Of a stretch of DNA of 64,000 bases, positions 23,398 through 54,333 are shown piece after piece (position 1 is the first letter of the stretch; each line of letters begins with the position of its first letter). This DNA is from Psammoneis japonica. Its lineage: Eukaryota. The position numbers and the translations under genes are program-made. The DNA is taken from the NCBI GenBank assembly GCA_008632985.1, contig QPGO01000158.1, forward strand, positions 1 to 64,000, written 5' to 3'. The notes beneath the pieces were generated by a model. It was not told where the DNA came from. It worked only from the letters and a program-made list of their open reading frames with translations, and searched no databases.

Positions 23398-26300
23398 TCA
23401 ATCCACGCGTGTGGATTTCTCTGTTGTAGTGCGTTGTCGTTGATATTGTTTACTCTTGCTCTGTGGAAGTCTCATTGGAGGCCTTGGCACGGAGGGCCGT
23501 CGAGAAACGCTCTGCCTTTTTGTCAACATTCTTACACGAATCTTGATAGCGTCACCGGCAATGTCGGTGCATTCCGACTTGTTGACACGGAGTCCATTGG
23601 TACCAAGAATGGCGTCAAGCTCGTCCGTATTGGGGAGTTCCACCATGACATTGTCATTCTCAATCTTGATGGGGAAGGTGAGAATCTTGAGGTCGCCTCC
23701 AATCTCGTCGCCATCTGCAAGTCCGAATTGCTTCTTGTGCAGAGGACATGCCACCTTGGCCTCGTCACTGACGCTTCCGAGGATACCCTGGACAAGACAA
23801 AGGCTTGCTTGTGGGGGCACATGTTTTGTGTGCAGTACCACTCGCCACGCTTCTCGTTGTTAAAGACAGCGAGCTGGGTCTCGCCGACAAGAATGGTAGA
23901 TCCGACATTGGGAGCAAAGTCTGATGTCTTACCGACAGTGACCCACGACTTTTCAGAGCGAGAGAAAACGTCGTCCTCGGGAGCTTGCCAGTTGGTTTGG
24001 GGTTGACCGTCTTTGGCCAATCGGCGGGGCGGAGCTGTCCACGCATATCGACAAACTCAATCATTTCGTCCTTGAGTTGATTCTCGTCCGTGTTGACAAA
24101 TTGCTTGAACTTGGCTCTCCTGGCTGGATCCTTGACAACCTCCGCCCATTCATCGTGGTAGGTGTCGACCAATGCTCCATGCGAGCATCGAGTTCGTCGC
24201 AGATGCCCAACGAATCTTCAATAATAACTTCCTTGAGGTGCTCAATCGGACCGCCTCCGTTCTTGCCCGATGGTAGCTTTTGTTGCCAAACGGCCGTACG
24301 CTCCAATTTGTCGGCTGTCAAGATGTAGTACATAATGTATCTGTCAAGGTACTTGAGGACAGTATCTTCGTCAATGTCAGAAGCAAAGAGCTGGGCATGG
24401 ACGGGGTTGGCTCCGCCGTTTCCTCCCAAGTAGAGATTGTATCCGTTCTCAGTTGCAATCATTCCGAAATCCTTTCCTTGGGCTTCGGCACATTCACGGA
24501 CACACCCCGACACGGCACTCTTCATCTTGTGAGGGGATCGGATTCCCTTGTATCGGTTCTCGACACGGACAGCAAAGGATACCGAGTCTTGGACCCCATA
24601 ACGGCACCAGGTGGAGCCGACACAAGACTTGACAGTACGGAGGGCCTTACCATAGGCGTGTCCAGACTCGAGACCAGCTGCTCCAAGCTCCTCCCAAATA
24701 TCAGGAAGCTGGTATTTGGCAGCACCAAACAAATCAATACGTTGAGCACCGGTGACCTTGGTGTAGAGATTGTACTTCTTGGCAACTTCTCCCATGACAA
24801 TGAGTTGCTCGGGTGTCAATTCACCGCCAGGAACACGAGGAACAACCGAATACGATCCGCCGCGTTGCATGTTGGCCATGGAACGGTCATTGGTATCCTG
24901 AAGGGCATCACGTCCCTCATCGATAATGACTCCATTGTTGAGAGAAGCCAGAATAGAAGCAACGGCGGGCTTGCAGACTTCGCAGCCGTCGCCGTGTCCG
25001 TGCTTGGCAAGAATCTTCTCAAACGAATCGACACTGGATGGATCGGCATCGGTCCTGACCAACGCCATGAGCTCGGGACGAGACATGTGGAAATGCTCGC
25101 ACATGTGGTTCGAGAGACTTCCACCGAGAGCTTCGAGTTCCTGTGCGAGAATGGTCTTGACTTGAGGTTCGCATCCACCGCATCCGGTACCGGCAGACGA
25201 GCACTTTTTCAGCTCGGCAAGTGTGCAGTCCTTTCCAATACTCTGAACAGCTTCGGCAATGGCTCCGCGGGTGACATCGTTACAGGAGCAAATCTGTGAG
25301 TTGGGGTCGGAAGAAACCTCATCAGAATCATCGACAACACCGCCTCTGGCCGATGGAGGAGCCAAAAGGTTGGCAGGGTCTTCAATGTCGGTGGGTTCGA
25401 CAACGGCAAGCTTGTGAAGGACGGCATAGTCGGAAGCATCTCCAACAAGGATACCACCACGAAGTCTTGTTCCAGCCTTGTTGAAAATCAACTTTCTGTA
25501 AACTCCCGAAAGAGGATCGTTCCAAACCATTTCCGTCACGTCGGTATCATCGGGCTGGGGTTGGTTGACCCCAAAGGATGCAACATCACATCCCAACAAT
25601 TTGAGCTTGGTGGACAAGTCGGCGCCCGTAAACTCCTTTTGCTCTGCATCAACACCAAGAGCCTCGTTGGCAACGGCACGTGCCGCAACGTCGGCCATGA
25701 CGTATCCGGGAGCAATAAGACCATAAATGAAATTGTTGTAGAGAGCAATCTCTCCAATCGCGTAAACGTCCTTGGCCGAGGTGTGCATGAGTTCATCCAC
25801 CACAATACCACCGCGTTCACCGATATCAATAGTGCCACAGTCCCGGGCGAGTTCATCCCGGGGCTTGATACCACAACTGACGACCACCATTTGAACCGGC
25901 AAGTCGTCCCAGTCCTCATTGCTGAATCGAAGAGCGGAAACGGGAGCGGCAGAGTCGTTATCCGTGGTACCGTCGGAACCAACAAAGGATTCCGTTCTGG
26001 CACCGCAATGCACCTTGAGGCCCATGTCTTCAATCTTGCCCACGAGTGCATCGTGGCCGCCTGAAAAGAAAACAAAAGGGGTGGAGCAAAGGTAAGATTC
26101 GATGTCGAGTGAAGCAAAAATCATAGCAACACGTCAATACAACAACAAGAACCAGACTCACCCTGATCAATCTGCCTGCACATGAGAATCGGAGCAAACT
26201 CAATAATGTGCGACTCGAGTCCCATATCAGCGACAGCCTTGGCTGCTCCAATCCCAAGAGTCCTCCACCAATCACGGCGGCGCTCTTGACATTGTTATCC

Positions 26301-26887
26301 TTGGCGTACTTGAGCATGTTTTCGAGATCTTCAATGGTACGGTAGACAAAGACTCCGGGTCTTTGCTTTCCTGGAATGGGCGGAACAAACGGAAAGGATC
26401 CTGTCGCCATGACGGCAACATCGTATGGAATCTCCTTTCCCGAAGCTCCCGTGACGGTCTTCTTGTCGGTGTCAATCGACACGGCCTTGTCATTGAGCAA
26501 GAGTTCCACGTCATTGTCCTGATACCACGCCGTTCTTCCGTCTTTATCGAATTCCGAAGTCATGGACAGCGACGTTGGATCGCGTGTTTCAAAGTACGAC
26601 GTGAGCTTGACGCGGTTATACGCCGCACGGGGCTCTTCGCAAAAGGTTGACAACTGACACGTCTTGTCCGTGTCGAGCTTGAGCATGTTCTCCATGAACT
26701 TTTGACCCACCATGCCGTTGCCAATCACAACGACGCGTTTCTTCTTTTCTTCAGCAAACAATTCAGACTTGGACGGAACCGGTGTCGTTCTTACACCGAA
26801 TCTGGACGGAACAAAGGCATTGCTCACGGTAAGGAGAGACAGGACGAGGACCGCCCGTCTACTAGTCTTGGAGTTTGACGGCATCAT
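23398..26887 (-). CDS. nirB: NAD(P)H-dependent siroheme nitrite reductase, NirB fused to a NirD Rieske domain, with a bipartite plastid presequence
   Basis: Motifs VIGNGMVG, IGGGLLGLE, STKLKLLG, BFD-like CSCN...GCGGC, KSCVGSTWC, SGCVRECA and Rieske CPHK...CPLH. The presequence contains 'VSNAFVP'. The intron is at 26061-26161. The exact 3' end is uncertain because of frameshifts. Confidence 0.93.
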
Positions 26888-32303: not shown

Positions 32304-32972
32304 GCTGTACTATAGAATGATTGAGGCTAAGCCATACAGTACTAGTCTGAGAACTGATAAGCAAGAACTGCGTGTTGGCTTGATGTTTGATGTTGTTGAT
32401 GCGTCGTCGGTCGTCGACGGTCGGCGGCAGAAAAATAAAATTGAAATTGAGTGGCAGGTTGACGGGGAGCTCATAACCAAAAAATTGACATGCGTGACTG
32501 ACGGTTTCTCAGTCGTGGATCGATGACGAGGACGACCAAACAAAAAAGCAAAAGAAAACCATGGTACATGAACAGCTGATGGACACTGTCATTATGAGAC
32601 TAGGCTTACAAAGTCTTTCGTTAAGGTCACAAATGCTTTCGAGCTGGATTGAGGACGATCACATATAGTGTTATGATCGAACGAGCCGATTACCTGTGGT
32701 CTGTCCGACCATCGATTTTGACGAGTTGCACGCATCTTGCATGCACAACCGCACAAATTTTCAAAAAATGAAAAACTCTCCACCCGACGCCCGACGCGAC
32801 GTTTCGCATCAGGCATACATACACCACTCCGCCGCCTGACTGGTTGCCATTTGCCATTCTTCGTCTTCCTGGACACTTTTACGATGGTCGAAAGCTTGGA
32901 CGAGACAAAAGAAAAGGCGCCATAAAGGCATTCTTTCCACAGCACACCGCTTGATGTTCGCCCTTTCCAACA

Positions 32973-33863
32973 ATGTCTAGAGACAGTAATGACGACGACG
33001 ACGACGATTCCTGCCTTGGTTTGGGATTCATGTTTGAGGGAGCCGAGGCCTCCGTGGTGAAACGCCTTCATTGGAAGATACCCAACGAAAACGACAATGA
33101 CGAAGAAGCGATTGAAGTTCTAGTCAAGGTTGTTGATGACGACCCCGGTGCGTTACAAAGCGGGCATTATCTGTGGCCAGGTGCACCGGCTCTAGCAGAA
33201 TACTTGCTGCTTTCTCGACGAGACAATGATCCTGAGATTCCTCCTCCCAAGTCAATCGTTGAACTCGGAGCGGGTTGTGCCTTGCTGTCTCTGACGGCAC
33301 TTTTGATATTTTCTTCATCACTTGACTCGGTTGTCTGCACAGATCATGACCCGGGAACATTGACAAGAGCCAAGGAAAATTATGAACTCAATCTGGCGGA
33401 ACTGCGTGACTTTAATGACATGGACGATCCGAGATGTGCAACTCTGGTGGAAAACGTCTCCTCTGTTCAATTTCATTTCGAGCCACTATCATGGGGAGAT
33501 GTCAATGCTGCCAATGCTCTTGTATCGGCAAATGGGAGTCGGTTCGACTGGATACTAGGATCGGATCTCATTTATTGTCAACAAGTCGTCGAACCTCTAT
33601 TCATTAGCGCATCCGCCTTGTTAAAAAGGGATTGTTCCAAAGGCGGCAAATTTATCTTATCTCAGAGCTTTGTGTACGACGAGGATACGGAACAAGAAAT
33701 TGAAAGAATGTGCGAAAAGCTAAACCTACAACGTATCGTCCGCGTAGACACACTTTCCGAAACAGCCGGCGCGGGAGTAAAAATTCAGGAGTTTTTACCC
33801 TTGCCTAGTAACAGTCAAAGAGCAGGTGACAATGTATTGCAAGGAACACTGCAGTATAAGTAA
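32973..33863 (+). CDS. Class I SAM-dependent protein methyltransferase (METTL21/Methyltransf_16-like)
   Basis: SGHYLWPGA, VELGAG, TDHD, LSWG and ILGSDLIY. Confidence 0.88.
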   Translation: MSRDSNDDDDDDSCLGLGFMFEGAEASVVKRLHWKIPNENDNDEEAIEVLVKVVDDDPGALQSGHYLWPGAPALAEYLLLSRRDNDPEIPPPKSIVELGAGCALLSLTALLIFSSSLDSVVCTDHDPGTLTRAKENYELNLAELRDFNDMDDPRCATLVENVSSVQFHFEPLSWGDVNAANALVSANGSRFDWILGSDLIYCQQVVEPLFISASALLKRDCSKGGKFILSQSFVYDEDTEQEIERMCEKLNLQRIVRVDTLSETAGAGVKIQEFLPLPSNSQRAGDNVLQGTLQYK

Positions 33864-35874: not shown

Positions 35875-37338
35875 TCAATGTGCTCGTGTTGAATGAATTG
35901 TTGGTGGTTCCCTTGGCAATCGGAAATGAGAGAACGAAAAGGATTTAGGAGCAACAGGTTTCTCATCACCACTCAAAAGAAAGTGGTACATGCCATGAAT
36001 TGCCAGCCTGATGAACTCATTTGCGTCAAAGTGCGGTATCGTTCTTTCCAAAGGCTCGGCCGACTCGAATCGATAAGCTGTATGAGTGAAATGCGAGAAA
36101 ACAGTCTCAATCTTTTCCAGCCCGAAGCTCACACGCGACAAATGGGAAGCCATTTTCTTTTGACAAAGTAGCTTAGAGAGAATCAGCAGCTGTCGCGCTT
36201 CCCTCTTGTCTTGAGCAAACGATCTGAGAATCCTGGGATCTGTCTCCGGTCCCAAGATTCGAACATATGGCCGCCGAAGTGTGTGCCGGTGTTCGGGTTG
36301 AAAGAATTCTTTCGCAATGGCATACAGGGTTCCTACTGAGAGTGAATTGCTGTATCCTGCTGTGGCATGGAACACTCTCACCTCGCCATCAGTCCTGTCA
36401 AAAGTGCCAAAGGCAGCATGCTGAAGCCGCTCGGCAACATAGTCACACGGGACAATGTCCAAGCAGATTTCTTTCCTTGCGGATATGGTGTGGAGAAAGC
36501 CCAGGCCAAACAAAACAACAAATGCAGCGAAGGTGGCCTTAGAGTCAATCCATCCAGGCATGGGGTAGTTCAGGGAAGATGACACAATCGAGGGACGCAC
36601 AACCACCAAAGGTACGGCTTCTCGACGTTCTTCGAGTAGAATCTCCGCCATTGCCTTGGTGTAGGTGTACGTATTTGGAAAGCCAGTTTCCGAAAGTAGC
36701 TTAGCCTCTTTCTCAGTAGATATCCCATTCAAAATAATACGGTTGTATTTATCAGTAGTGCTTCCGTCTCACAGCAACACAAGTCTCTCATTTTCTTTGG
36801 CTGAGCCGTCATGTCGCGTTGTGACGAACGCGGTGCTACAGTGGACGAAAGAGATTAGCTTGGAGCACCCTTTGGCCAGTTCAAGGAGTTCAAGTGCCCC
36901 TGTCACGTTAGCTTTGGCGGCTTCTGAAAATGGGAGATCAAAGTCAACCGCTGCAGCCAGATTAATCACGTGTGTGACTAACGAATGCACTAGTTCGACA
37001 TCCTTCTCGCTCAAACCAAGTTGCGGTCTTGACATGTCGCCCTCAAGCCCCACAACACGGCCATCATTGAATGCAGACTGCACTTTCTTGAAACAAGGTT
37101 GTGTACGCAGTTCTTCAATGCGCTGCTCAGAGGATCTCTCATGTTTCGGCCGAACCAAAAGAAGCACACAACCCACGTTATCGCTTGCGAGCAGACTCTC
37201 GAGTAGGACTTTGCCGATGAATCCAGTACCACCTGTGAGGAGTATGGTGTGCTTTTCACTGTGTAACCGAGGGCAGTTTAACCCTTCACCTCTCGATGAT
37301 GATAGATGAAAGGAAGACGGGACACGAACACCCGTCAT
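35875..37338 (-). CDS. Fatty acyl-CoA reductase (NAD_binding_4 / male-sterility domain)
   Basis: LTGGTGFIGKVLLE, INLAAAVDF, HCSTAFV, PNTYTYTKAMAE, VRPSIV, PGWID and DIVPCDYV. There is a break near 36733-36770. Confidence 0.88.
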
Positions 37339-37846: not shown

Positions 37847-39524
37847 GTGCCTGTTCCCGGTCGAAGGTTGTTTATGAAAGTAAGCAAAGGCGACATGACG
37901 TCGTTGTCTGTTTCTGTGGTCATTCCTGTTTTGAATGAACAAGACACGCTTCCATTGCTGCTTCGACACCTTTCCTCGTGCACTCCTCCACCATCCGAGA
38001 TAATTGTTTCTGATGGAGGTTCATCGGACGGAACAGTAGATGTTGCTAGAAAGGCCGAGGTCGTGGTGGTGGAATCAAAGGCAGCAAGCGGAACTCGTGC
38101 CTTGTCGCTGAACCGCGGTCTGGCCGCAGCAACGAGCGATTTGGTTGTCTTTGTACATGCAGACACGTTTCCGCCAGCGGACTTTGTAAGCCACATCCAA
38201 AATACCATGGCGGATGTCCGCGTTTCGCTTGGCGCATTTCGAGCAATTATTGCCAGCAGTCACGATGTTTCGTCAGGAAAAATGGTTGTGAATAGAATCA
38301 TCACGGCACATCACTACATCAAGACATACTACGGACCACTCTTTCTGTACCCTTATCAAATGCTAGTGCTGGGCTTGAGATCTTTCTTTGGAGACCAGTG
38401 TATGTTTGGTCGCCGTCAGCAGCTACTAGAGGTGGCGGGCTTTGACAATGTCCCAATCATGGAGGAGTCTACGCTCTGCAAGAAAATGGTCCGATATGGG
38501 CGGCAGGTTCTTCTGAGCGCCACTTGCACGACACTAGATCGACGCATTGCGCTATATGGAACACTGCGTATAACTCTTCTCCATCTCTTTATCGGCTTTG
38601 GCGCCGAGCTGGGTATTCCTCTAAGTTGGCTCAGTCCTCTCTACCCTCCACAACACGAACTGGAGGAGCGTCAACGCCTGGCCAAGATCAGGTCACGTAT
38701 TCGCGGCAATCGCTTTTTTGAACAAACTTTATATGGAACGAAGTGGTGAATGAGAAATGCTACCATCACGATAGAGTGAAAATTCCGTCAGTGGGTGCGA
38801 CGGTGATTGATGTTGGTGCCAACATTGGTATCTTTTCCCTGTGGACTGCTAATTGTTGCCAGCTCAAAGGCGCTACGATCCATGCTATGAACCAAGTCCC
38901 AGCACATTCAAGCTTCTTGAGGCAAATGCCACTGAGCCGTCGGTAGAAGCAATTTCTGGGAATCGTATAGTGACACACAATCTGGCCATGACATCGTCCC
39001 AACAATCAGAACAACGTTCCACCATGCCCCTTACTACCTACCCCAACTGTTCCGGGTGGGCAACGTTTCATCAGGACGAAGAAACGCTGCGTGAAGATTT
39101 GTGGTGTTTTGTTTCCAATAGCATTGGTGCGGGCATTGGAAACAACTTTATGATCAAACGTGTCGTACTTCCGATTTTGAAAGCTCTTGTTTACCCCTTT
39201 GCCTTCAAAGTTCTTACATTGGGTGCTGCACGATCCAATGTACAAGTCGCATGCCTGTCATCATTCATGAAAGAAAACTCAATTGATTTGGTCGATTTTC
39301 TTAAAATCGATGTGGAACGACACGAGTACCAGGTGTTGTTGGGCATATCCGACAATGACTGGCCCAGGATTGAAGCTGTTGCCGTCGAGACAGAGGTCAA
39401 CCATGCCGCAATTCGAGAGCTCCTAGAAACACACCATTTCCTTGTTGAGGAAAAGAAGGAGCAACGGTTGCAAGGTGCTCCTCATACCATCATTTGGGGC
39501 ATGCGCGTACCCAAGATGGACTAA
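37847..39524 (+). CDS. GT2 glycosyltransferase (TIGR04283-like) apparently fused to an FkbM-family methyltransferase, frameshifted
   Basis: SVVIPVLNE, DGGSSD, FVHAD, FGDQCMF and PIMEE, followed directly by VIDVGANIG, YEP and LKIDVE in adjacent frames. Confidence 0.75.
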
Positions 39525-42500
39525 ATGACGGTTTTAGTTGTCACTGTTCTTTCTTATATTCTATTGTTGCACTGCTGCAAATGAAACATTGGGGATTCTG
39601 CGCTTCCTTTCATTCTCACTTTCTCTAGTTACAGATGCCGATTCTGTTGTTATGTCATCCTTGTTCTCCGAGCTCTTGGGGGTTCAGCCCGAAACTCCTT
39701 GTCCACCCTTGAGCTCCAGAAAGATGATGCCGCATGCTCCGTTTGCTGCAACGCAAATCCACCTTATGCTCTCCACGAACCGGGTGTTGTCGCGCACGGC
39801 TCGAGTGTCAAAGCCGATCGAGGAACTGCATCTACATTTTTGGTGATGGGATTGACCCTGTTCCCAAAGATGACCAAGATGTGCGTCAAGTTCCAATTCG
39901 CATTGAAACATTTGGAATGCCAGAAAGCACGATCCATCACAAACATCCGCGGCGCACCCACATCTTTTTTTGCGTGCCACTGGCATGGACAGTTGATGAA
40001 TGCTGTCAGCAAGACGACATCGTGCAATCCAAAATTAAACAAGAACAAGGATGTGTGCATTGTTCTTTGGCCCTCTTTTTTTTAATGTTCCTTGAAGTGC
40101 CTGTTTTTGCCCCAAATCAGATTGAACCCACATGGTGTCATTGCCACAGCCATGAGACAGGCCTCCACAAGATTGACAATTTCTGCAAAGCCAATGAGCA
40201 TGACACCAACAAGCAGCAGCCACAGCAAGCTCTTGCTGTGCATCATGCCCCACACTTGGACTAAGATGCCCAGTGCCATGACAGTCCATTCCCCACATTA
40301 AAAACATGTGTGCCTCTCAAAAAGAAAAAACAGCAATGAGGCCTAGCAGCAGCTGCTCAAAGTCTCTTCTTCCAGCCCATCAAGAATGGTCATGTTCAAG
40401 CACATGGTGTGCCCTTGCCGGCCACCATCAAAGCAGTGCCAAACACTCCAAAGCTGCACCAAAAAAAGTGTTGGAGACAACTGTCCCAACACAGCAAAGT
40501 GCAGCGGCAGTCATGAATGTTGTGCCACATGCTGCAAGGCAGGGTGTGGCTCAAGCAAAGGAGCATTGTCACCGGGTCCATTCTTTGGGCTTCAACAGGT
40601 TTGGCTGCACCCAAGAGCAAAACATCCAAGTCAGCAGAAAGAGGATGAGAACAAAGTGCAGGTCAGCACCACTCCAACATGCTCTGTTCACTCAGCGGAA
40701 GTTGCCAAGTGAACAAACAGTGTTGCAATTTGGGGGGACACTCAACACCCACACACAGCAGGTGTGGGGGGGGGGGGGGGGCATGACTGGAGCACACAAA
40801 CACACTCAAGGTGTTTTTTTTTGTCACTTGTTTGTGCACATGTGCACGTGCGTGCAAAAGGGGCGTCGTCACTGTCAAAGTTGGCAACAGAGAAATTGGT
40901 CACGTGAAATCTGGGCCAAGCCAAGAGTTTGCACACATGGTGGCTCAATGGGGATTCCGTTGGCAACTTGACAAGAGCTCAAATGGGGCTAAAATCCGTT
41001 GTGCCATGACTCCTCTTCCTGCACAAAGGGAAAAACTTTGTGCTGTCAGCCACAACCCACAAACCAACTCAAACAGCCCCTTTTGTTCACATGCATGTGT
41101 GCCTTGCACCCAGTTTGTTCTTCTGGCTGTGTGTGGCGGCATCTGCCTTGGAATGGTTTGTTTGTTTGTTTGCGTGTGTGCACATGCAAGAGTGCACATG
41201 TGCAAATGTGCAAGTGTGTGTTGCCAACAAAGTTTGGCACAGAGAAGCAGGAGTTGGTCACATGAAGCAAGTCCTGGTTGTTGGGTTGGGAGTTTGCACA
41301 GCCATGATGGTGCATGGGAACTTCCAGCCCATGGTGGCTTGGCTCACTTTAGAGTTCAAATGGGGCCAAGACCTTGTGCAAGAACAACTCTTCTTGAGGA
41401 AAGGGCAGAGCTTTGCACTGTCAGCATTGACTCTGCACAGTGTGCTGTGCTCAGTTGTGCTGCTGGTGAAACAACATGGAACAGCCACCCCTTGTGTTTG
41501 CACATGTGCACACCTTGTGCCCAGTGTGTTCCATGAATGGTGGTCAGTGCCCCAAAGAGCTTGTCTTCCATGGCGATCATTTGCATCTTTTGTGGCAGTG
41601 TGCTGCCTGCTTCCAACTCCAACCAATGCCCCTCTTTGGTGCTTCACAGTGACAATGAGTCCACAAAAAGTCAACCTCAGCTTGATGTGAATGTTCAAAT
41701 GATGGCAATGCATGGAGTCCATGGATGACTGCAGAAGTTTTGGCAAGACACTTTTGTTGGCAAGTGTGAGTCATCTGCTGACAACACTGCAAGCTGAGCC
41801 AATGGTGGTGGCTCATCTGCTGTGAAACAGTGTGCCAATCCTTGTCATGAGGAGTGCCCAATCTTGACACAACAGAGAGCCAAAGGCAGGTGGTGATGCA
41901 GAGACAGTGATGAAGACAGAGACAAAGATGCCAATGAGTCAGATGGGTTTTTTTGGGTTCCCCAACTGCAAAATGTTTCTCATTTGCAGCATGACCCTTT
42001 TCTGCAGCAGAAGGTTGTGCGCAATGTTCCTGCAACATCAAGAAAGTGTGATCCTGTGTTGTTTGCAATTTTACATTGAGGGTTGCAGTTGATGACAATC
42101 TTTGTCCAAGTGCAACATTTTTGTTCAAAGCACACATTTGCAATGCCCAACCAAAACTCATTTGTGCCACATTGTTGCACGGATGTGTTTGTTGTCAACA
42201 TTTGCAACATGTCTCCCCAAACTGCAACGGGATGAAAAGTCGCTCTCAGCACACCAACCATCCCATGTCCAAACTTGTTTCTCTTGTTCCTCTTTGTTGG
42301 CTCAGTTGTCTTCCGTGCAATTGTGCAGAAAGCAAAAGGTGATTTTGACCGGGATGGCAGGGGCACTTGCTGTTGTTGCACAGAATGGCAGTGAGCACAA
42401 ACAAAAGGAACAAACAGTGTCATGCTGCAAGTGCAGCTCAGCTCAAACAATGGGCCAACAAAGTCATGGCTTTTTTCATTTTCAACAGCACCAAAGCCAT

Positions 42501-42740
42501 GCCCAGCACTGGTGTGCATGGGCCACTGTTTCTGCCTGAGAGAAACACCAAAGGAAACATGCAACTCTGGCATTCTCAGTGCATCAGGAATCACTGGTTG
42601 GGCAGCAGAGCTGGTGGATGCCAGGATGATTCACATCAAAAGAATCACCCTGGAAATGGCCCAGCATGACACCCATTTTTTTCCACAATTGTCATTCTTT
42701 GTTGGTTGTGTGTCGGGTGCGTTTCATGACAGAAACATTG

Positions 42741-43348
42741 GGCAGCAGGTTGATGGAGAGCTCACAACAAAAATTGGCCTGCATGACTCATGCCATCTCA
42801 GTCACAGATGGTGAGAACAGCCAAATAAAAAACAGCAAAAGAAAAGCTGTGGGCACATGAACAAATGATGGAGGATGCACTGTCAGCACAAGATTGTTTT
42901 TTTTACGTTGATGACTTGCTGTGGTGTGATCCAAGGCACACATCTCCTTGGTTCAATTTCATTTCAAGTCACTGTCATGGGGAGATGTCATTGCTGTCAA
43001 TGCTCCAGTCTTGGCAAATGGGAATCAGTTTGACTGGATGCTGGGATTGGATCTCATTTGTTGGCAACAAGCAACAAGTCATCTCCAACCTCCATTCATC
43101 AGTGCACCAGCTCTCTTCCTTGCTTGAAAAAGGGTTCTTGTTCCAAAAGATGCAAATCCATCTCATCTCATCTCAGAGCTTTGCACATGATGAGGACACA
43201 GAACAAGAAATTGAAAGAATGTGCAAAAAGCCAAAACTGCAATGCATTGTCTGCACAGACACACTTTCCAAAACAGCAATCACAGGAGCTGAGCCCAAGG
43301 AATTCTTTCCCAGTGCCTTTCAACCATCATCACAGAGCAGGTGACAAC
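42741..43348 (+). pseudogene. Degenerate copy of the 32973-33863 methyltransferase gene and its upstream region (42741-42893 ~ 32451-32600; 42951-43348 ~ 33465-33833)
   Basis: SQSFAHDEDTEQEIERMCKKPKLQCIVCTDTLSKTA matches SQSFVYDEDTEQEIERMCEKLNLQRIVRVDTLSETA, and the DNA aligns directly. Confidence 0.95.
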
Positions 43349-43699
43349 ACATCAAGATCAGGAGGGATCAGGAACATCACAGCTCAAGCACAGCTGCTGA
43401 AAATGTCAACACAAAAAGAATTCTCATGAGCAGCTGGGTTCAACAATGCAATGGGCCACAAGTGCTGCACATTCATTCGGCAGGGCAGCACATGTGGAGA
43501 GCATGCCCACACCCACAACATTTAGATTTCAGGTCTTGGACTGAGCTCACATTGGGCCATCCCCAGCATGGCAAACCAAGCAACTCAACAAATGCAAAAA
43601 CATGCTGAAACAAATTTTGCTGCACCCATGTGTTGTGCTGGAGTCACCTCAGCTCAAGTGGCAGTGCAAAAAAGCTTGGCTGTGAATCACTTCTTCTTT

Positions 43700-44400
43700 C
43701 AACACACAAAATGCAGTCTGCAGAAGATCTGAAGCAATGGGTGCACCCATGTGCCTCACTGGATGGCCCTGAGTTCTCCTGTGTGTTGTGAGCCCTGACA
43801 AACCATCACCCTTCCAAATTCTTCTGTGACCACAGTGACCTTGAGACCACTTTGTTGGGTGTGCACATTTTTGGTGTGTGCACTCCACTCCTGTGGTGCT
43901 CACCTCTGGATTTCTCTTGTGCTTGCAGGCTTCTTCTGAGTGCCACAGCCATTCTGTGTGCACTGGTTGGACTCAGCCACAAATTTTGTCCCATGGTCAA
44001 AAATGTGACCTGGGATTGTCGCAGGTGTCTGCATGACCAGGCTTGTTCTGCAGTGCCTCCTGCCACTGTGTCTGTGCATTTTGCAGTTGAAACTCTCTGC
44101 AGCCGGTGTGTTTGGCATGTTCTTGGCCATTTGACAATCATGGGGGTTGGCTCTGCACCAAGGCACTTGGTCCATTGCCACAAACCTGTGTTTGGCTCTC
44201 CAGTGCTCCTCACCACCAAGCTGGGAAACACACCATTTTCATTGGTGTGGTCATTGCAGTGGTCATGGCTGGGTCCAAAGCTGGGCTGCTGTGTTGTGAT
44301 GGCCTTTGAAATGGCATGGGCAGCAATGCACAGCTCTCCCATGTCATCCCATGGGGGCTTGATCTTCTCCTGTGCACACACCACCCTGCATGAGTGACAA
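43700..44400 (-). mobile_element. Degenerate LTR-retrotransposon (Ty3/gypsy-like) integrase remnant
   Basis: Across frames, AEQAWSCRH.RQSQV / IFDHGTKFVAE / KRNPEVSTTGVECTHQ resemble the integrase core W..RYP.P....DRG.EF...NPQAN..VER.H. Confidence 0.5.
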
Positions 44401-47400
44401 GTGTGCAAAGAGCAGCTGCCCTCCTGCTGTCTGTGCATCAGGGATGCACAGTTTTTTGTTGCTGGCTGTGATGCCCTCATGAATGAACTGATGATTTTTT
44501 TATGAAAAATGTGCTTTGAGACAAGTTGCAGTTGTCAGTGATGATGGTTGCATGTCTTGCAGTCATGTGGATTGGTGCAGAGGAGGTCTCTCAACATCAT
44601 GAGGCAATGCTTGTGGCAGCTCAAATTCTGTGGCAGTGCTGTTGGTGACTGTTGTTGAGAAGTGGTGGAGAACTTAGATTGCCTGGCCATGCACCTCACA
44701 TTTCTGTTCAACATGGCAGCAGTCATGGAGGTGATGAAATGAATGCAGTGGTGTGATGTGCACCCTTGGGATCATGGCAAAGAAAGAACAAAGAACAAAG
44801 ATCAGAAGAATTTCCAGAATTGGATGTGATTGATGTGGATCAGGCACAAAGAAGTGCTTTGAGCTCTGCTGGAGAGAACTCTGGACAGCTCCTCAGCATG
44901 AGCTGGCCTTCTGCACATTTGCTCACCACCCCACAATCTTTGTGCTCCTTGCATGAGAACAAATGACTTCAACCACCACATTGTGCAAATCATTTGTGGC
45001 AGCATTCAGTCACGCTGATGATCGAGCAGCAACTGTGCTTGCAGAATCTTTTTGAACCCTGTTGGAGGCATGTGGTGTGGTGAGCCACTCATTTTTTTTG
45101 TGCTGTTTTTCACAAGTTTTTGTGGTCATTGTCCCATCCATCAGAGTGAAGCAACAATTGCAAAGGTCTCTCAGACCAAAATGCACACTGGAGCACACAC
45201 CTTCATTGACTGGCTGACTCAACAAAAAATGGTGGTGTGGATGGAGCCACCCCCAGATGTCAGTGTTGGGTGGCCAAACTCAGATGCACTCTCCAGCCCC
45301 CCAGATGGTGACCCACATGTCATTTGGCGTGCAGGGTTCCACACGCAAGCTCTGCAGCATGAGAATTTAGTCCATGGACATGTTTGTCTTCAACAGCAAA
45401 CAAATGACCAAGTTTGTGGTGCAACTGTGCCTCTTGACACTTGCCAGGTGTTTTGAAGCTTTGCCTGCTGCTCTGCACCATTTTCAAGACATTTAAGAAT
45501 GCAGCACTGCAAAAATGTAGAAAGTTGTTGAGTGGATGGCCCAATGACTGCACCACAAGATGGCACAAATTGCACCAAAGTTGCACGAAAAATGTGCATG
45601 CATGACACATGGCCTGCAGATGAAAACATGACTTCAACATCACAGTCCAGCACTGCAAGCTGCAAGGTCCTGCCCAGAGCTGGAGTGCATCCTCAATGGC
45701 ATGAGCAACACAAAAGAACCTGGTGTCAACCAAGAGTCCCACATCACACAGTTCTTTTTGTGGAAAGAAGATCACAACATTTCTGGAACAGCTCAAAGTG
45801 AGTGCACTTTGCAGTGCCACTTTTGTCACAATTGCTTCAGAAACAACAGTCAAGAAGGAAAACCATTTGCTTCCCTCCCAGATGAGCAAGTGATTCAAGA
45901 TGACAGGGGTGCTTGTGCCAGAGCAAGAAGCTGAGTGAGTCACAAATGCCAGAGCAAAGCAGAGCATGCTGCAGCATCTTCTGGAGAGTCCATGCCCCCA
46001 CCATGCAATTGGGTTTTCCAGCACACCAAACACCCCTGGCACTGACAAAACTTCAACTGGTCCAGCCCAACTGGTGCTCTCCATTTGGGTTCTCCAATCT
46101 GAAGAAGGCTTTGAGAGTTGCACCTGCATCTTGCGTCAGCTCTGGATCCTCTGACAACAGCAACTTAACACAAATGCACCTTCTTCACTCTCTGCTTTTC
46201 TCAGCTGACTCTTGTTCCTGAGAGTCTTCATTCTTTCTTCACTTCTGATGTTCTGTTCTTTGTCTTTGACTTGTGTTCACCTTCACCTTCATCAACATCT
46301 GCATCTCTCTCCTCTCTTCAATTCTTCAACTCTTGATTGAGTGCAATGAACAGATGCAGATGAGGCATGCAGTGCCATGCATTCCAGAGAATGCTGGAGT
46401 TCAGCTGGGCCTCAACACAAAGACGTCACGTGTCGTCAGCTGTTTTTTGCATTTTCTGTTGTTGCCACAAAGCGTGCCCAGGAATCAGCGATGTTTTTGA
46501 AAGTGGCAAGTTTCCACGAATGTTCTACATGCAAGACAATGGTGTCAATTCTGCAGAGGAGGTGCACAAAATTCACAGTGATTGAGAAATTTAGCAACAG
46601 TCATGACTCAAACAAAATCTCTCCAAAAGCTTTTTCTTTTGTGCTTGATTTTTGATTGCAACTCATTGTCTTGCATGATGTGTTTGTTGCAGCACTTGTG
46701 GAATCTTGCTGTGCATGGTGATTCTGTTTCAACTGCAGCACTGTGTTGCAACTGCACGACTCGTCTGTGACAAAAATGTTGTGTCAAATTTGCACAAAGG
46801 TGCCTTGCACTTCCGTGTTGCAAGTGATCGCTTTCTCTGGACACACCTTCTGTCCACAGAGAGCAGCAGGGATTCACACCATCATCCATTGCACTGGTTG
46901 GTGGTGCCTTGTTTTGCTGTCGTTTCTTTTTGATTTGTTTGTGCGCATCTTGTTTTGTGTCAGCGGAGCTTGTCAGCAGTTCTGCTGCTGTGTTGCTGGT
47001 TGTGGCTCAGTCGGGGGCCCAATGCAAGTGCTCCCATTGAGGCAAATTCACACTGACCAGCTTGGTTTTTTTCTGCCAAACTCAGTTGTGTTTTTTGTTT
47101 GTTTGTGTCAAGAGCATTCCAGTCATCATGGTGTGTCCTTGCCAGCATGAAGTGCAGTCAACAACTCATGATGCACAGTGTCATTGGTTGCTCTGTCATC
47201 AATTGCATCAATCCTGCCTTCTGTGCTTTCTCAACTTTTCCCATTTGCTTTCCCCAAAGCTGGAGGATTGTCCCACTCAAATGTCACCACGTTTCTGGCT
47301 GAATTGGAGCCATGAAAGCAATCACCTTGAACAACCCCAAAGTTTGGAGGCATGAGAGCAGAGCTCTTGCCGAATGACACTTGTGAATGCCACTCCACCA

Positions 47401-49805
47401 ACAACTCCAGACCTCTGCACTTTTCTGCTGCACAAACAGCAAACCATTTTCTGGGATGGAATCCTGATGACTGAAGCCGTGCAGTCAAAGCTGCAAGGTC
47501 ATTCAATGCCAGGTCACATGTGGTGCTTGCAGAAGCCATCCAAAGTCAAAGTGATCTCATGAAGCCTCCACCGAAGGTTGTTCAAAGCCAAACAACTGTC
47601 ACCCCTTGGTGCAAAAGTGCAATGGCCTGCCCACAACAACCCAAAACAAACCCTTTCTTGCCTTTTCTTCAGAGCCATTCAATGCTTGTAGCCAGCCAAC
47701 AGCATTTCCTCCCTTGGTTTTCCCTTGCTGGAGTGCCATTCCTGACATCTGCACACTTAAAGCCCATGTCCCAACCTGTCAAGTCAGTGATGCAAGGAAT
47801 CATCACTTCCACCTGCTTGATTGTTGCCTCTGAGGACACCCACCAGCATGATTTGCTCTTTGGGATGGAGCCAGACTCTCTTTTATGCTTGAGCAATGTC
47901 TTGTGACTGCTCCAATCTGAGATTGCATTGAAGTGAAGCTTGTCACATTTCTTTGCAAGAAATGGATGATGCAGTGGTGAGGAGCAGTCCAAAGAATCAA
48001 GACCAAGCATTCTTGCATCGTGCACATGTTTTGTGCCGGTTTTGTCATCTGAACAATTTCAGCCTTGACCTGAAGATCAAAACATGAAAGACAAGTTCCA
48101 AGTCCTCACACTGGATTTGATTTGCAAACAAACAGAACATTCTTGGGAGCCTTGACATCTGTGCAGTGAAATGAAACCAAGTGCAGCTGAGAGAACGAGA
48201 AGCAAAAACACACAAGTTGAGCACTTGCAAAAGTGCAAACTCGCCGGCAGATGACAAGTCCCCCAGCATTTCCAAAACAATGGCATGCAATTTGTCTTCT
48301 CATTTGTGAATCTCTTCTCCTTGTTGTCTGGCCTTTTCATGAATTTTGTCTTCATCCACTTGATTTGCTTTTGAGTGCAGTGCTTTGCAGGAGATGGCAT
48401 CCTGCATCATCTTCCATGACATTCAAGCAAATCTTCAACTCCATGAGGATCATCAAATGCATCATGAATCACCAAGGCATGAACAATGCACACATCCACA
48501 AATGGTTGTCCATTGGCATTGCAACACATGCCACTTGAATCCATTCTGGCACACCATCTTCATGCTCTGCCACGGTTCCCAATGACAAGAGTTGCTGTTG
48601 CGCTGTTGTTTGGTGCTGTTGGAAGATGCCACCATGAGTCCATCCAGTGCTTGCAAAGGACCCTGTTCCAACAAACTCAACTGCAAATGAGATCCAATGG
48701 CAGCCGGCATCCCGCACCCCATTCATTTCAGTCGCTGCAATCAGCCCTTGCTGCAGCAATTTGTCCTTGCTCAAGACGCGTCCACTTGTTTTCAAAATCA
48801 TTTTTTAGACCATGTTCAACACTCGTGTTGTTTGTTGCAGTGTTGAACAGTCCACAAATGCAGCCACTTCCATTTCCATTGCCCGCAGGGTCTCCGTGTC
48901 TCTGCATCGACAACAGTGCTGCAGGCACACAGAATCAACACTTGCAGAGAATTTGCACTGGGCAGAAGAATCAAGGAGGAGTGCACCTGTCAGTTCAACT
49001 GGCCTGCCCCTCACTTTCCTCATCTCACCAGGTGGTTCACAAGATCTTTGGAGAGGCAGTGTCCAATCGGAGGACACAGACTGCAAGAAGTGATGGCTGT
49101 GAACGCCGTTGCTGTGGCCAAGATCGCACTGGACCAGCAAGCGGGTTGAGACTGCATCAACTGTTGCCATGTTGAAACCGCCCCACAACTGACTCTGTGG
49201 AATTGTGAGAAAGTGTGTTTGTTTGACGCTCTGGACCCATCCATGGTTGTGGATTGCTGGGACAAGCAGGCATGAATGAGCTCACCACAGGTGGCGGCTC
49301 AAACAATGAGTCGTGCAATTTGCGCAGGCGATGGTGGGCAGGCATCTTGCGGTCGGCGGTCTGTGCTCTAGTTAGAGCAGCTAGCTCTACCCTCTACTCT
49401 AGAGAGTAGAGAAGTAGTCTGCTCTACTGCTGCTAGCTAGTGCCGGCAGCAGCTGCTCTAGCAGTGGCTAGTAGAGACAGTCGTCAGAGAGTGTTGTTGT
49501 GAGCACACGGGTGTCGAAGCGCGCGGGAACCAATTTTCCATTATCCGGGTTCCACAAAATATCCAACCATGACAAAAGGCAAAGCGGCAAAAGCAAAGCC
49601 ACAAACAAACAGCCAAATCCATACAACAAGCCAAAGAGAGAGTAAAAATGGCGATACGGTAGACTCTGGGGAGAGTAGCTGTTACAAGCTGAAAAGTTGA
49701 ATTATGGTATTGTAAGTCAAACAAACTACGAGAGTTGATAAGATTTTTCGGCCCCCATTGGCTCCTGGAATACAGTATATGCAGGCGAAGAACAAGAAAT
49801 ATGTT

Positions 49806-50510
49806 TCAATCAAAGATGATCTCAAGAGTCGGAGTTTGGAAGATGTCAGAATCGAAAGAAACCATCAAGAAAGTGTCAGCCACGTCGGTTTTGGGGTTCA
49901 CCAGAGCCCATCCATGATTCGACTCGGGATCCGTGATGAATTGGGCAACGTCGTTAGTCACATCAAGCTCAAGGGAAGCTGGCTGCCCGTTATCTCCGTG
50001 TTCTGGGAGTTCAGCAAGGTCAGACGCTTCCAGCTCAGGAATATTGGCCCCTGTAGCGGTCGTGTCCCAAGGCGAAATCACGCGCTTCAGAGATACAGGG
50101 TCGCCGCCGGTGCCGGAAAGTGCAACGATCCGGAGGGTAGCAGACTTCACCGTCGCGTCAGTTGGGATACCTTGTGGCAAATCAAACTTAATCAAAGACA
50201 AGGCAAAGCCATTCTCTTCTACAGAAGTACCCGCCAGAGCACGGAGAAGGCCGAAATCAGGGGCGTCGGCGCCAGTAGTACCTTGAGCGCCTTCTCTTCC
50301 AGGACTGATCACAGAAATATCTATACCTGCAGTGAGGGTCAAGGGCGCCGTCGGGCAAAACCATGAGTCCTTCTTGCCAACCGCACAATGCTTTCCAGTC
50401 TTTGTCTTGCTCTTCTGTTTCGTGCCGTCCTTCGCTGGAGCTCCCTTTATCAAGCGAGCGTCACCCACGGAAATCAACGCAAGTATTGCTGGAAGAAAAA
50501 GGTACTTCAT
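49806..50510 (-). CDS. Secreted protein with a DNRLRE/CBM96-like beta-domain
   Basis: Signal peptide MKYLFLPAILALISVGDA, then LIKFDLP..IP..ATV.SATLRI, LDVT..V, NHGW and P.LEI. Confidence 0.65.
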   Translation of the reverse strand: MKYLFLPAILALISVGDARLIKGAPAKDGTKQKSKTKTGKHCAVGKKDSWFCPTAPLTLTAGIDISVISPGREGAQGTTGADAPDFGLLRALAGTSVEENGFALSLIKFDLPQGIPTDATVKSATLRIVALSGTGGDPVSLKRVISPWDTTATGANIPELEASDLAELPEHGDNGQPASLELDVTNDVAQFITDPESNHGWALVNPKTDVADTFLMVSFDSDIFQTPTLEIIFD

Positions 50511-53687: not shown

Positions 53688-54333
53688 ATACTCTCATTAC
53701 ATACTTACTTCACTTTGTCCATAACTCGGAAACCAGAAGCATCGCCAATGTCATTCCGCTGTATTGAGTTTCTCATTTCCATAATCGAAATCGAAGCTGT
53801 CACCAGAATTGAGACTTCACATGTATAGCGATTACACTAGTTCAACGATTGATTTCACTGTTGGCCAGTTCTTCTGCTGTTTTCTAACTCCGTTCAGATA
53901 GAAGCTATAGAGCCCCTCTAGGTCGAAAATCTCTACTGAGCGATAGCATTTTTGAGTACTTTTCCTTTCNCGCGCTCGCACTTCTCTTGGTTTGTTTTCT
54001 GTGCTGCAAGCTGCAAGCAAGTCCAGCCAAACGAGCAGAGGTAGGTTAGGTCTCTAGAGCTACTCTCTCTAGTAGAGTAGAGTAGAGAGGTAGGTGTGCA
54101 ACAACAAACTTTCATCAATGTGCAAATTTAGTCTGGGACGGACGGACGGCACTCTTTGTGTCCGGGTTACATACCGTTCTGGCCGCGACACGCAAGAACA
54201 ATGCCTCGTCTGTAGTATCAATACCAAATTCTACACGATTCTTTCTCGCTCCGCCACCCGCCTGCCACCACCTACCGCACCACGAGCACACTGCATGCAT
54301 TCGTGGCCATGCACAACAAGCAACAACGCAACC

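Follow-up and report, generated by a model that had tools for sequence, protein, structure and literature searches.

The window analyzed here is a 64-kb stretch of DNA from the diatom Psammoneis japonica (assembly GCA_008632985.1, contig QPGO01000158.1, positions 1–64,000 of the + strand). It is gene-dense nuclear DNA, with open reading frames (ORFs) that contain nitrite reductase, NAT10, DHHC, SET, LRR and glycosyltransferase domains. Two of its genes, a nitrite-reductase-type gene (24064–26887, minus strand; Pyr_redox_2, Fer2_BFD and NIR_SIR domains) and a reductase gene with the NAD_binding_4 (“male sterility”) domain (35878–37338, minus strand), are each represented by two neighboring ORFs, which are probably separated by a short intron rather than by breakage. 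A single N is present in the window, at position 53970. The gene at 32973–33863 on the plus strand, hereinafter the donor, encodes an intact protein of 296 amino acids with a Methyltransf_16 (lysine methyltransferase) domain (PF10294, E = 2e-10). This protein has 147 homologs, with 48% identity to the closest; a few of them are named and come from diatoms (Epithemia, Proboscia and Odontella). The donor ORF is unbroken and conserved, and its CG and TA levels are normal.

The 9.3-kb tract at 40022–49368 nearly lacks both CG and TA, and in it TG and CA are doubled. The G+C content is unchanged, at 0.46–0.47, as expected if the loss of G+C through the conversion of CG to TG or CA is balanced by the gain through the conversion of TA to the same two products. 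The 8.2-kb core of the tract (40351–48572) contains 55 CG (observed to expected ratio, o/e, 0.12) and 17 TA (o/e 0.03), with a TG+CA o/e of 1.91, and the two products are evenly represented in the tract (966 TG and 988 CA, o/e 1.88 and 1.93, respectively). The corresponding o/e values outside the tract are 0.98 for CG, 0.54 for TA and 1.17 for TG/CA. All of the 25 longest CG/TA-free runs of the window are located within the tract, the maximum being 572 nt; outside it, the longest of 5221 gaps is 69 nt. No 300-nt window with three or fewer CG+TA occurs outside 40022–49368, so that there is one such tract in the window.

The left border is sharp for CG, with 24 CG in the 497 nt that precede position 40022 but a complete absence over the following 329 nt; this edge (40022–40350) retains five TA (to 40344), counts so small that an offset between the two depletions is unclear on this side. 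On the right, the core is followed by a 796-nt zone (48573–49368) that is virtually free of TA (1 TA, o/e 0.02; TG+CA o/e 1.77) but in which CG is half restored (25 CG, o/e 0.46). TA reappears abruptly at 49369, so that the TA-poor zone extends 0.8 kb beyond the CG-poor zone. We take this offset as the best evidence here for separate processes of CG loss and TA loss that operate in overlapping domains. The TA-free tract is immediately followed by clustered GCTCTA(G)/TAGAGC words arranged in nested inverted repeats (49361–49477, ~115 nt, with ~14 TA in ~100 nt). This cluster might represent a boundary element, one end of a mobile element or part of a promoter. The cluster includes a near-perfect 20-nt palindrome (49392–49411) that is unique within the window (0 expected by shuffles).

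The sharp left border, the unusual inverted repeats at the right end and the length of the tract, about 10 times that of the usual intergenic gap in the window, would be compatible with the arrival of a mobile or viral element, or of a segment moved out of silenced DNA, that carried a captured fragment of the methyltransferase gene and had acquired its composition before landing. The content of the tract does not point in this direction. Only two components are recognizable, the copy of a part of the donor gene described below and an internal tandem duplication, and 8.5 kb of the tract have no partner in the window. The tandem duplication (40808–41603, plus strand; 40808–41197 versus 41150–41603) has a score of 250.5, compared to at most 107.5 in 174 control pairs. 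Its halves differ mainly by transitions, and in blocks of at least 15 columns, they agree at 31 pyrimidine-purine (YR) steps and show a swap between CA and TG at 15.

A Pfam search started with the 72 stop-to-stop ORFs of at least 70 amino acids in the tract yields no credible match and, in particular, no viral or transposon domain; the hits to Metallothio_6 (E = 0.017) and BofA (E = 0.046) do not reach the curated cut-offs and were regarded as chance matches. When the six frames of the tract are read through, with X at the stops, no Pfam family is detected at E ≤ 0.1. Transposase, reverse transcriptase, integrase and capsid domains are lacking in both the ORFs and the read-through frames. The long ORFs of the tract (up to 271 amino acids) are to be expected, given that TAA and TAG stop codons are impossible without TA. 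An Rfam hit to snoZ17 (24 bits versus the gathering score of 44, E = 0.88) is below the threshold and was likewise considered spurious. Direct or inverted repeats, whether exact or near-exact, are absent from 39500–49600. Recoding of the bases as purines and pyrimidines (RY space), which makes transitions invisible, also reveals no terminal repeats of the tract, but only the internal tandem duplication. An RY-space coding score trained on 19 flanking genes has a median of 0.35 in the tract, compared to 15.0 in coding and 4.4 in non-ORF windows, although it is low for the known pseudogene block too and is thus too insensitive to exclude decayed genes. A scan of a metagenome sample (20 loci, 104,358 bases; too small to be informative about other diatoms) with the methyltransferase alignment identifies no sequence with more than 40% identity, and the same 20 loci contain no 1-kb window that is TA-poor and TG+CA-rich.

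When the tract is compared in RY space with all other DNA of the window, two real matches are detected, both to the donor region, whereas the next best one, at 64 bits, is at the noise level. The first block of the copy (42737–42872, plus strand; 133 bits, 89% over 142 columns) corresponds to non-coding DNA at 32446–32583 (plus strand), that is, 390–530 nt upstream of the donor start codon. The second block (42940–43354, plus strand; 426 bits, 88% over 415 columns) corresponds to the 3′ half of the donor coding sequence (33454–33839, plus strand) and is disrupted by indels and by an in-frame TGA, codon L217 having changed from TTA to TGA. The sequence-only reading of this DNA had proposed a pseudogene copy of an intact gene, and the two aligned blocks identify it as a truncated, dead copy of the region 32446–33839; the strings quoted in that reading are indeed found at 33539–33566 in the donor and at 43025–43052 in the copy. 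The copy lacks the 870 nt of the donor region between the blocks (32584–33453), in which the DNA next to the promoter and the 5′ half of the gene's coding part are located. In their place are 67 nt (42873–42939), the first part of which is still weakly similar to the donor, which argues that the copy was formerly longer and later underwent an internal deletion. Given that the copy contains upstream non-coding DNA of the donor in addition to the 3′ coding part, and is located 9.2 kb away in the same orientation, it is a DNA-level duplicate and not a retrocopy. The same arrangement fits a local duplication rather than the capture of a gene fragment by an element that arrived from elsewhere.

The direction of change is clear from the comparison with orthologs. 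The donor was aligned with 40 orthologous proteins, mostly from diatom-like sources, and the copy was mapped onto this alignment codon by codon. The 128 aligned donor–copy codons include 46 that differ in the encoded amino acid, and the orthologs carry the donor residue in 38 of these, the copy residue in 5 and neither in 3. In several cases, the change in the copy falls on an invariant or nearly invariant column of the ortholog alignment (S197, TCG>TTG; Y201, TAT>TGT; L209, CTA>CCA; R254, CGT>TGC; and two others, TAC>CAT and TTA>TCA). Because the orthologs agree with the donor at 38 of the 46 codons, the CG/TA state is ancestral, and the change proceeded from CG and TA to TG and CA. The premise that the intact ORF is ancestral and that TpA was lost in the copy is thus upheld by an outgroup that does not make the TG/CA state ancestral.

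The substitutions were tabulated for the 507 columns of the donor–copy alignment whose neighbors are also aligned (78.7% identity). None of the 28 CG of the donor survives in the copy: 12 became TG, 11 became CA and 5 were changed otherwise. Similarly, none of the 23 TA survives, with 13 converted to CA, 5 to TG (asymmetry of the two products, p = 0.10) and 5 to something else. Altogether, 41 of the 51 sites were lost through a single transition to TG or CA and 10 through other changes. The claim that all differences are CG or TA conversions accordingly holds for the 28-mer quoted in its support but fails for the copy as a whole, given these 10 sites and a C>A transversion in a 30-mer that was also quoted. 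The transition rate per base is 0.446 in CG and 0.413 in TA, compared to 0.077 for all other bases; for transversions, the respective values are 0.107, 0.109 and 0.054. In the tabulation by dinucleotide context, which had been set beforehand as the test of the TpA claim, A>G and T>C changes are enriched about 6-fold at TpA, with transitions at 19 of the 46 bases in TA (41%) versus 15 of the 233 other A/T bases (6.4%; Fisher p = 1.2e-8). The corresponding numbers for C and G are 25 of the 56 bases in CG and 16 of the 172 others (p = 2.8e-8).

The two strands were hit in an interleaved manner. The 41 single-transition events form 16 runs by strand, compared to 20.9 expected (P = 0.08), and the dispersion of TG versus CA among 100-nt bins of the tract does not exceed that in the flank (chi2/df 1.25 and 1.37, respectively). 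The pattern resembles ADAR/APOBEC hyperediting in the A>G changes with a 5′ U/T preference (for ADAR, see the Discussion of 10.64898/2026.01.13.699255) and in the presence of C>T changes, but hyperediting acts on one RNA or cDNA strand and produces strand-biased runs, whereas in the tract the strands are mixed site by site. The absence of long one-strand runs and a TG/CA dispersion that is no higher than in the flank disfavor the editing of single-stranded RNA or cDNA and favor independent hits on duplex DNA. A hyperedited retrocopy was rejected for this interleaving and also for the inclusion in the copy of DNA 390–530 nt upstream of the start codon.

Both depletions are close to saturation. 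The complete loss of the donor dinucleotides translates into lower limits (95% bounds) of at least 2.1 events per TA and at least 2.3 per CG, versus 0.13 substitutions per other site. From the core counts, the removal of TA is estimated to be ~58 times, and the removal of CG ~18 times, as fast as the creation of these dinucleotides from TG and CA, under an assumed mutation balance and a single plain transition rate. Methyl-CpG decay usually entails an excess of the same order as this ~18-fold one. The tract resembles methyl-CpG decay also in the nearly equal conversion of CG to TG and CA (12 and 11 of 28), the regional CG o/e of 0.12 and the continuing CpG polymorphism described below; this process explains, however, no more than half of the signature. 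Of the TA, 18 survive in the tract (within 40351–49368), mostly in TTA or TAA (15 of 18, compared to 37% of the TA in the flank, p = 8e-5). This bias could reflect a wider target motif in which TTA and TAA are poorer targets, or else a recent origin of the survivors in T-runs, or a process that has since stopped. TTA is not immune, as several TTA of the donor are converted in the copy.

The tract is supported by sequencing reads. The public run X1, which may represent the sample from which the window itself was obtained, contains 81% of the sampled words of 41000–47000, whereas almost no words of the tract are found in the public runs X2 and X3. Contigs derived from the X1 reads, at a word depth of ~55–66, are ~99% identical to the tract, and 30 of 30 depth bins are covered. 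The left border is spanned by an 8338-nt contig that starts in the normal flank at 38500 and reaches 40781, with 5 differences, and the TA border by a second one that covers 49255 to 50500, with 3 differences. Hence an assembly or base-calling artefact is very unlikely, even though X1 is not an independent sample. Contig joints at 43071/43192 and 43277/38500, which might have been read as a rearrangement, were taken to result from the donor cross-matching the copy, their depth of 54.9 being that of the flank contig. Summed X1 depth rises to ~4100 at 45317–45717, ~770 at 46520–46920 and ~290 at 48124–48524, compared to ~55–66 elsewhere, and 110 of 200 contig pieces are only 90–95% alike, many of them short, with loose ends that contain CG. 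Parts of the tract may resemble sequences that are multi-copy elsewhere in the genome, or these may be chance matches of TG/CA-rich words.

Among the 93 differences between the window and the contigs, 40 are listed, and 36 of these fall within the tract. Half of the listed tract differences (18 of 36) oppose CG to TG or CA, with the CG in the contig at 12 sites and in the window at 6. The CpG change at this locus is still under way. None of the 36 listed tract differences removes a TA that is present in the window, which speaks against current TpA activity; those that touch TA are one CA/TA site and one swap between CA and TG at a site where the donor has TA. At this latter site (43186–43187), the window has CA and the contig has TG, for which the shortest account would be a single TA resolved twice independently. 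The 15 swaps between CA and TG in the tandem halves require a CG or TA intermediate, which implies that the process outlasted the tandem duplication. The differences from the contigs and the swaps between the tandem halves show that the process acted at this locus, and a composition acquired entirely before landing is improbable, considering also the lack of terminal repeats and of mobile-element domains. The claim that host DNA was rewritten in place can be retained with regard to the host origin of the copy; “in place” is only partly borne out, by change at the level of the locus, and most of the conversions may have occurred either before or after the copy arrived.

The same data bear on the notion that the pattern reflects selection, with CG and TA being cut or sensed, or else errors of sequencing or assembly. 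A joint shortage of CpG and UpA is known in RNA viruses, and the 12 to 6 excess of listed sites with CG in the contig and TG or CA in the window might be read in favor of such an explanation. This skew is not significant (p = 0.24), and the contigs reproduce the tract and span both of its borders. Furthermore, there is no coding signal in the tract, and a dead gene copy offers no reason for selection at 51 of 51 sites. We regard this explanation as extremely improbable.

In several respects, the tract is reminiscent of the repeat-induced point mutation (RIP) seen in ascomycetes: the transitions are dense, regional and dinucleotide-specific, they affect both strands, a duplicated gene is destroyed, and the order of purines and pyrimidines is kept. 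A defence of this type, in which duplicated DNA is recognized by homology and then mutated, would agree with the fact that all identifiable content of the tract, the gene copy and the tandem repeat, is duplicated DNA. As a lead at most, DNMT4 enzymes that group with fungal RID are reported to be widespread in diatoms, and their function is described there as not known (PMC9998398). However, RIP changes C:G to T:A, mainly at CpA (PMC2621366), so that it creates TpA and lowers G+C, whereas the tract has lost TpA, includes A>G changes and has an unchanged G+C content. RIP also mutates both duplicates, whereas the donor has remained intact, and 8.5 kb of the tract have no partner in the window. 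The tract was accordingly rejected as an instance of RIP, and a RIP-like, homology-directed defence appears very improbable.

The closest parallel comes from the chlorarachniophyte Bigelowiella natans, in which integrated DNA of giant viruses and virophages was recently reported to undergo regional hypermutation at TpA (Mettrop et al., bioRxiv 10.64898/2026.01.13.699255, 2026). According to this preprint, the mutation rate of two integrated viral regions in mutation-accumulation lines exceeds that of the remaining genome ~1000-fold, 230 of the 231 de novo substitutions in these regions are A>G or T>C, all 230 of them at TpA, and 124 genomic clusters are depleted of TpA and enriched in CpA+TpG; its authors propose an ADAT2-like DNA adenine deaminase as the enzyme. 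The main text of the preprint makes no mention of CpG, diatoms or stramenopiles. The two systems share A>G and T>C changes at TpA, the formation of both TpG and CpA and the confinement to a discrete nuclear region, and the long-term trace predicted for B. natans, the loss of TpA with a gain of CpA+TpG, is the pattern of the tract. There are also differences. B. natans belongs to Rhizaria, whereas the host of the tract is a stramenopile. The viral targets in B. natans still hold TpA (Rho_TpA of 0.45 for the NCLDV region, as given in the preprint), whereas the tract is saturated, with a TA o/e of 0.03. Unlike those targets, the tract contains no detectable viral or transposon domain and includes host-derived DNA. 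The tract also has a CpG component, which is not among the features reported in the main text for B. natans. Finally, the rate in B. natans was measured in mutation-accumulation lines, whereas the tract is known from its end state alone. Defence against foreign DNA, to which the process is linked in B. natans, would be only a possible role in the tract, where the one identifiable piece is derived from the host. In a search of the literature, no report of TpA hypermutation in diatoms was found, the Bigelowiella preprint being the only relevant one. A mutation-accumulation study of Phaeodactylum describes a GC>AT bias and CG, CC and TG as mutagenic contexts, and its available text mentions no TpA process (PMC6604790).

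These observations are best compatible with two context-specific transition processes, methyl-CpG decay and an A:T>G:C hypermutation specific to TpA, that together drove a gene-free 9.3-kb tract near completion, a reading to which we assign a probability of about 60%. Both processes would act on both strands, site by site. The first, C>T change at CpG, most likely would involve the deamination of 5-methylcytosine in a methylated, silenced domain, as the parallels with CpG decay suggest; in diatoms, CG methylation of transposons is documented (PMC9998398, PMC6604790). The second would be an A:T>G:C change confined to TpA, with TpG or CpA produced depending on the strand hit. Most likely, it would result from an enzymatic modification of DNA bases, the leading candidate being the deamination of adenine to hypoxanthine, and it would be aimed at a chromatin domain, presumably distinguished by some mark, rather than at a sequence. 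A possible lead is the enrichment of 5-hydroxymethyluracil at TpA in dinoflagellate DNA, for which our search of the literature returned no supporting report.

A single deaminase or modification-repair pathway that erases CpG and TpA, the two self-complementary YR steps, in a marked domain by attacking the C of the former and the A (or T) of the latter, in which case the CG loss would be no by-product of methylation, has several points in its favor. The two depletions coincide in the same 8.2-kb core, both are near saturation, the per-base transition rates of CG and TA in the copy are nearly equal, and the deamination of A as well as of C in DNA has been reported for ADAT2-type enzymes (cited in 10.64898/2026.01.13.699255). 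A single activity is more difficult to reconcile with the unequal footprints on the right-hand side, with the unequal residual levels in the core, with the polymorphism of CG between the window and the contigs, where no listed difference removes a TA of the window, and with the occurrence in B. natans of a TpA process for which the main text of the preprint reports no CpG part. On balance, we consider a single system unlikely and prefer two overlapping processes.

Regional TpA hypermutation is of a kind already described in B. natans. What is new here is the diatom host, the saturation of both the CG and the TA loss, a duplicate of a host gene among the targets, and the presence of the ancestral sequence nearby. 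If the TpA process in the tract is the same as in Bigelowiella, it would be documented in a second, distant lineage, and the tract would provide the first view of its saturated end state and, thanks to the donor gene nearby, the first case with an ancestral sequence that can be read base by base. More tentatively, and with clearly less confidence than we place in the two processes themselves, diatoms might possess a chromatin-directed defence, a functional counterpart of RIP, that rewrites silenced DNA of any origin by erasing CpG and TpA; its TpA arm would be the Bigelowiella machinery, which would then be old in the group that unites stramenopiles, alveolates and rhizarians, and would include a natural enzyme that changes A:T to G:C in double-stranded chromosomal DNA. 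A natural activity of this kind, directed at a two-base motif, would be of interest to the builders of base editors. For genome annotation, ordinary similarity searches miss the dead genes and mobile elements that such tracts conceal, whereas a search in RY space recovers them, as in the present case. Nor does the target have to be viral, so that the question moves from the recognition of foreign DNA to the marking of chromatin domains.
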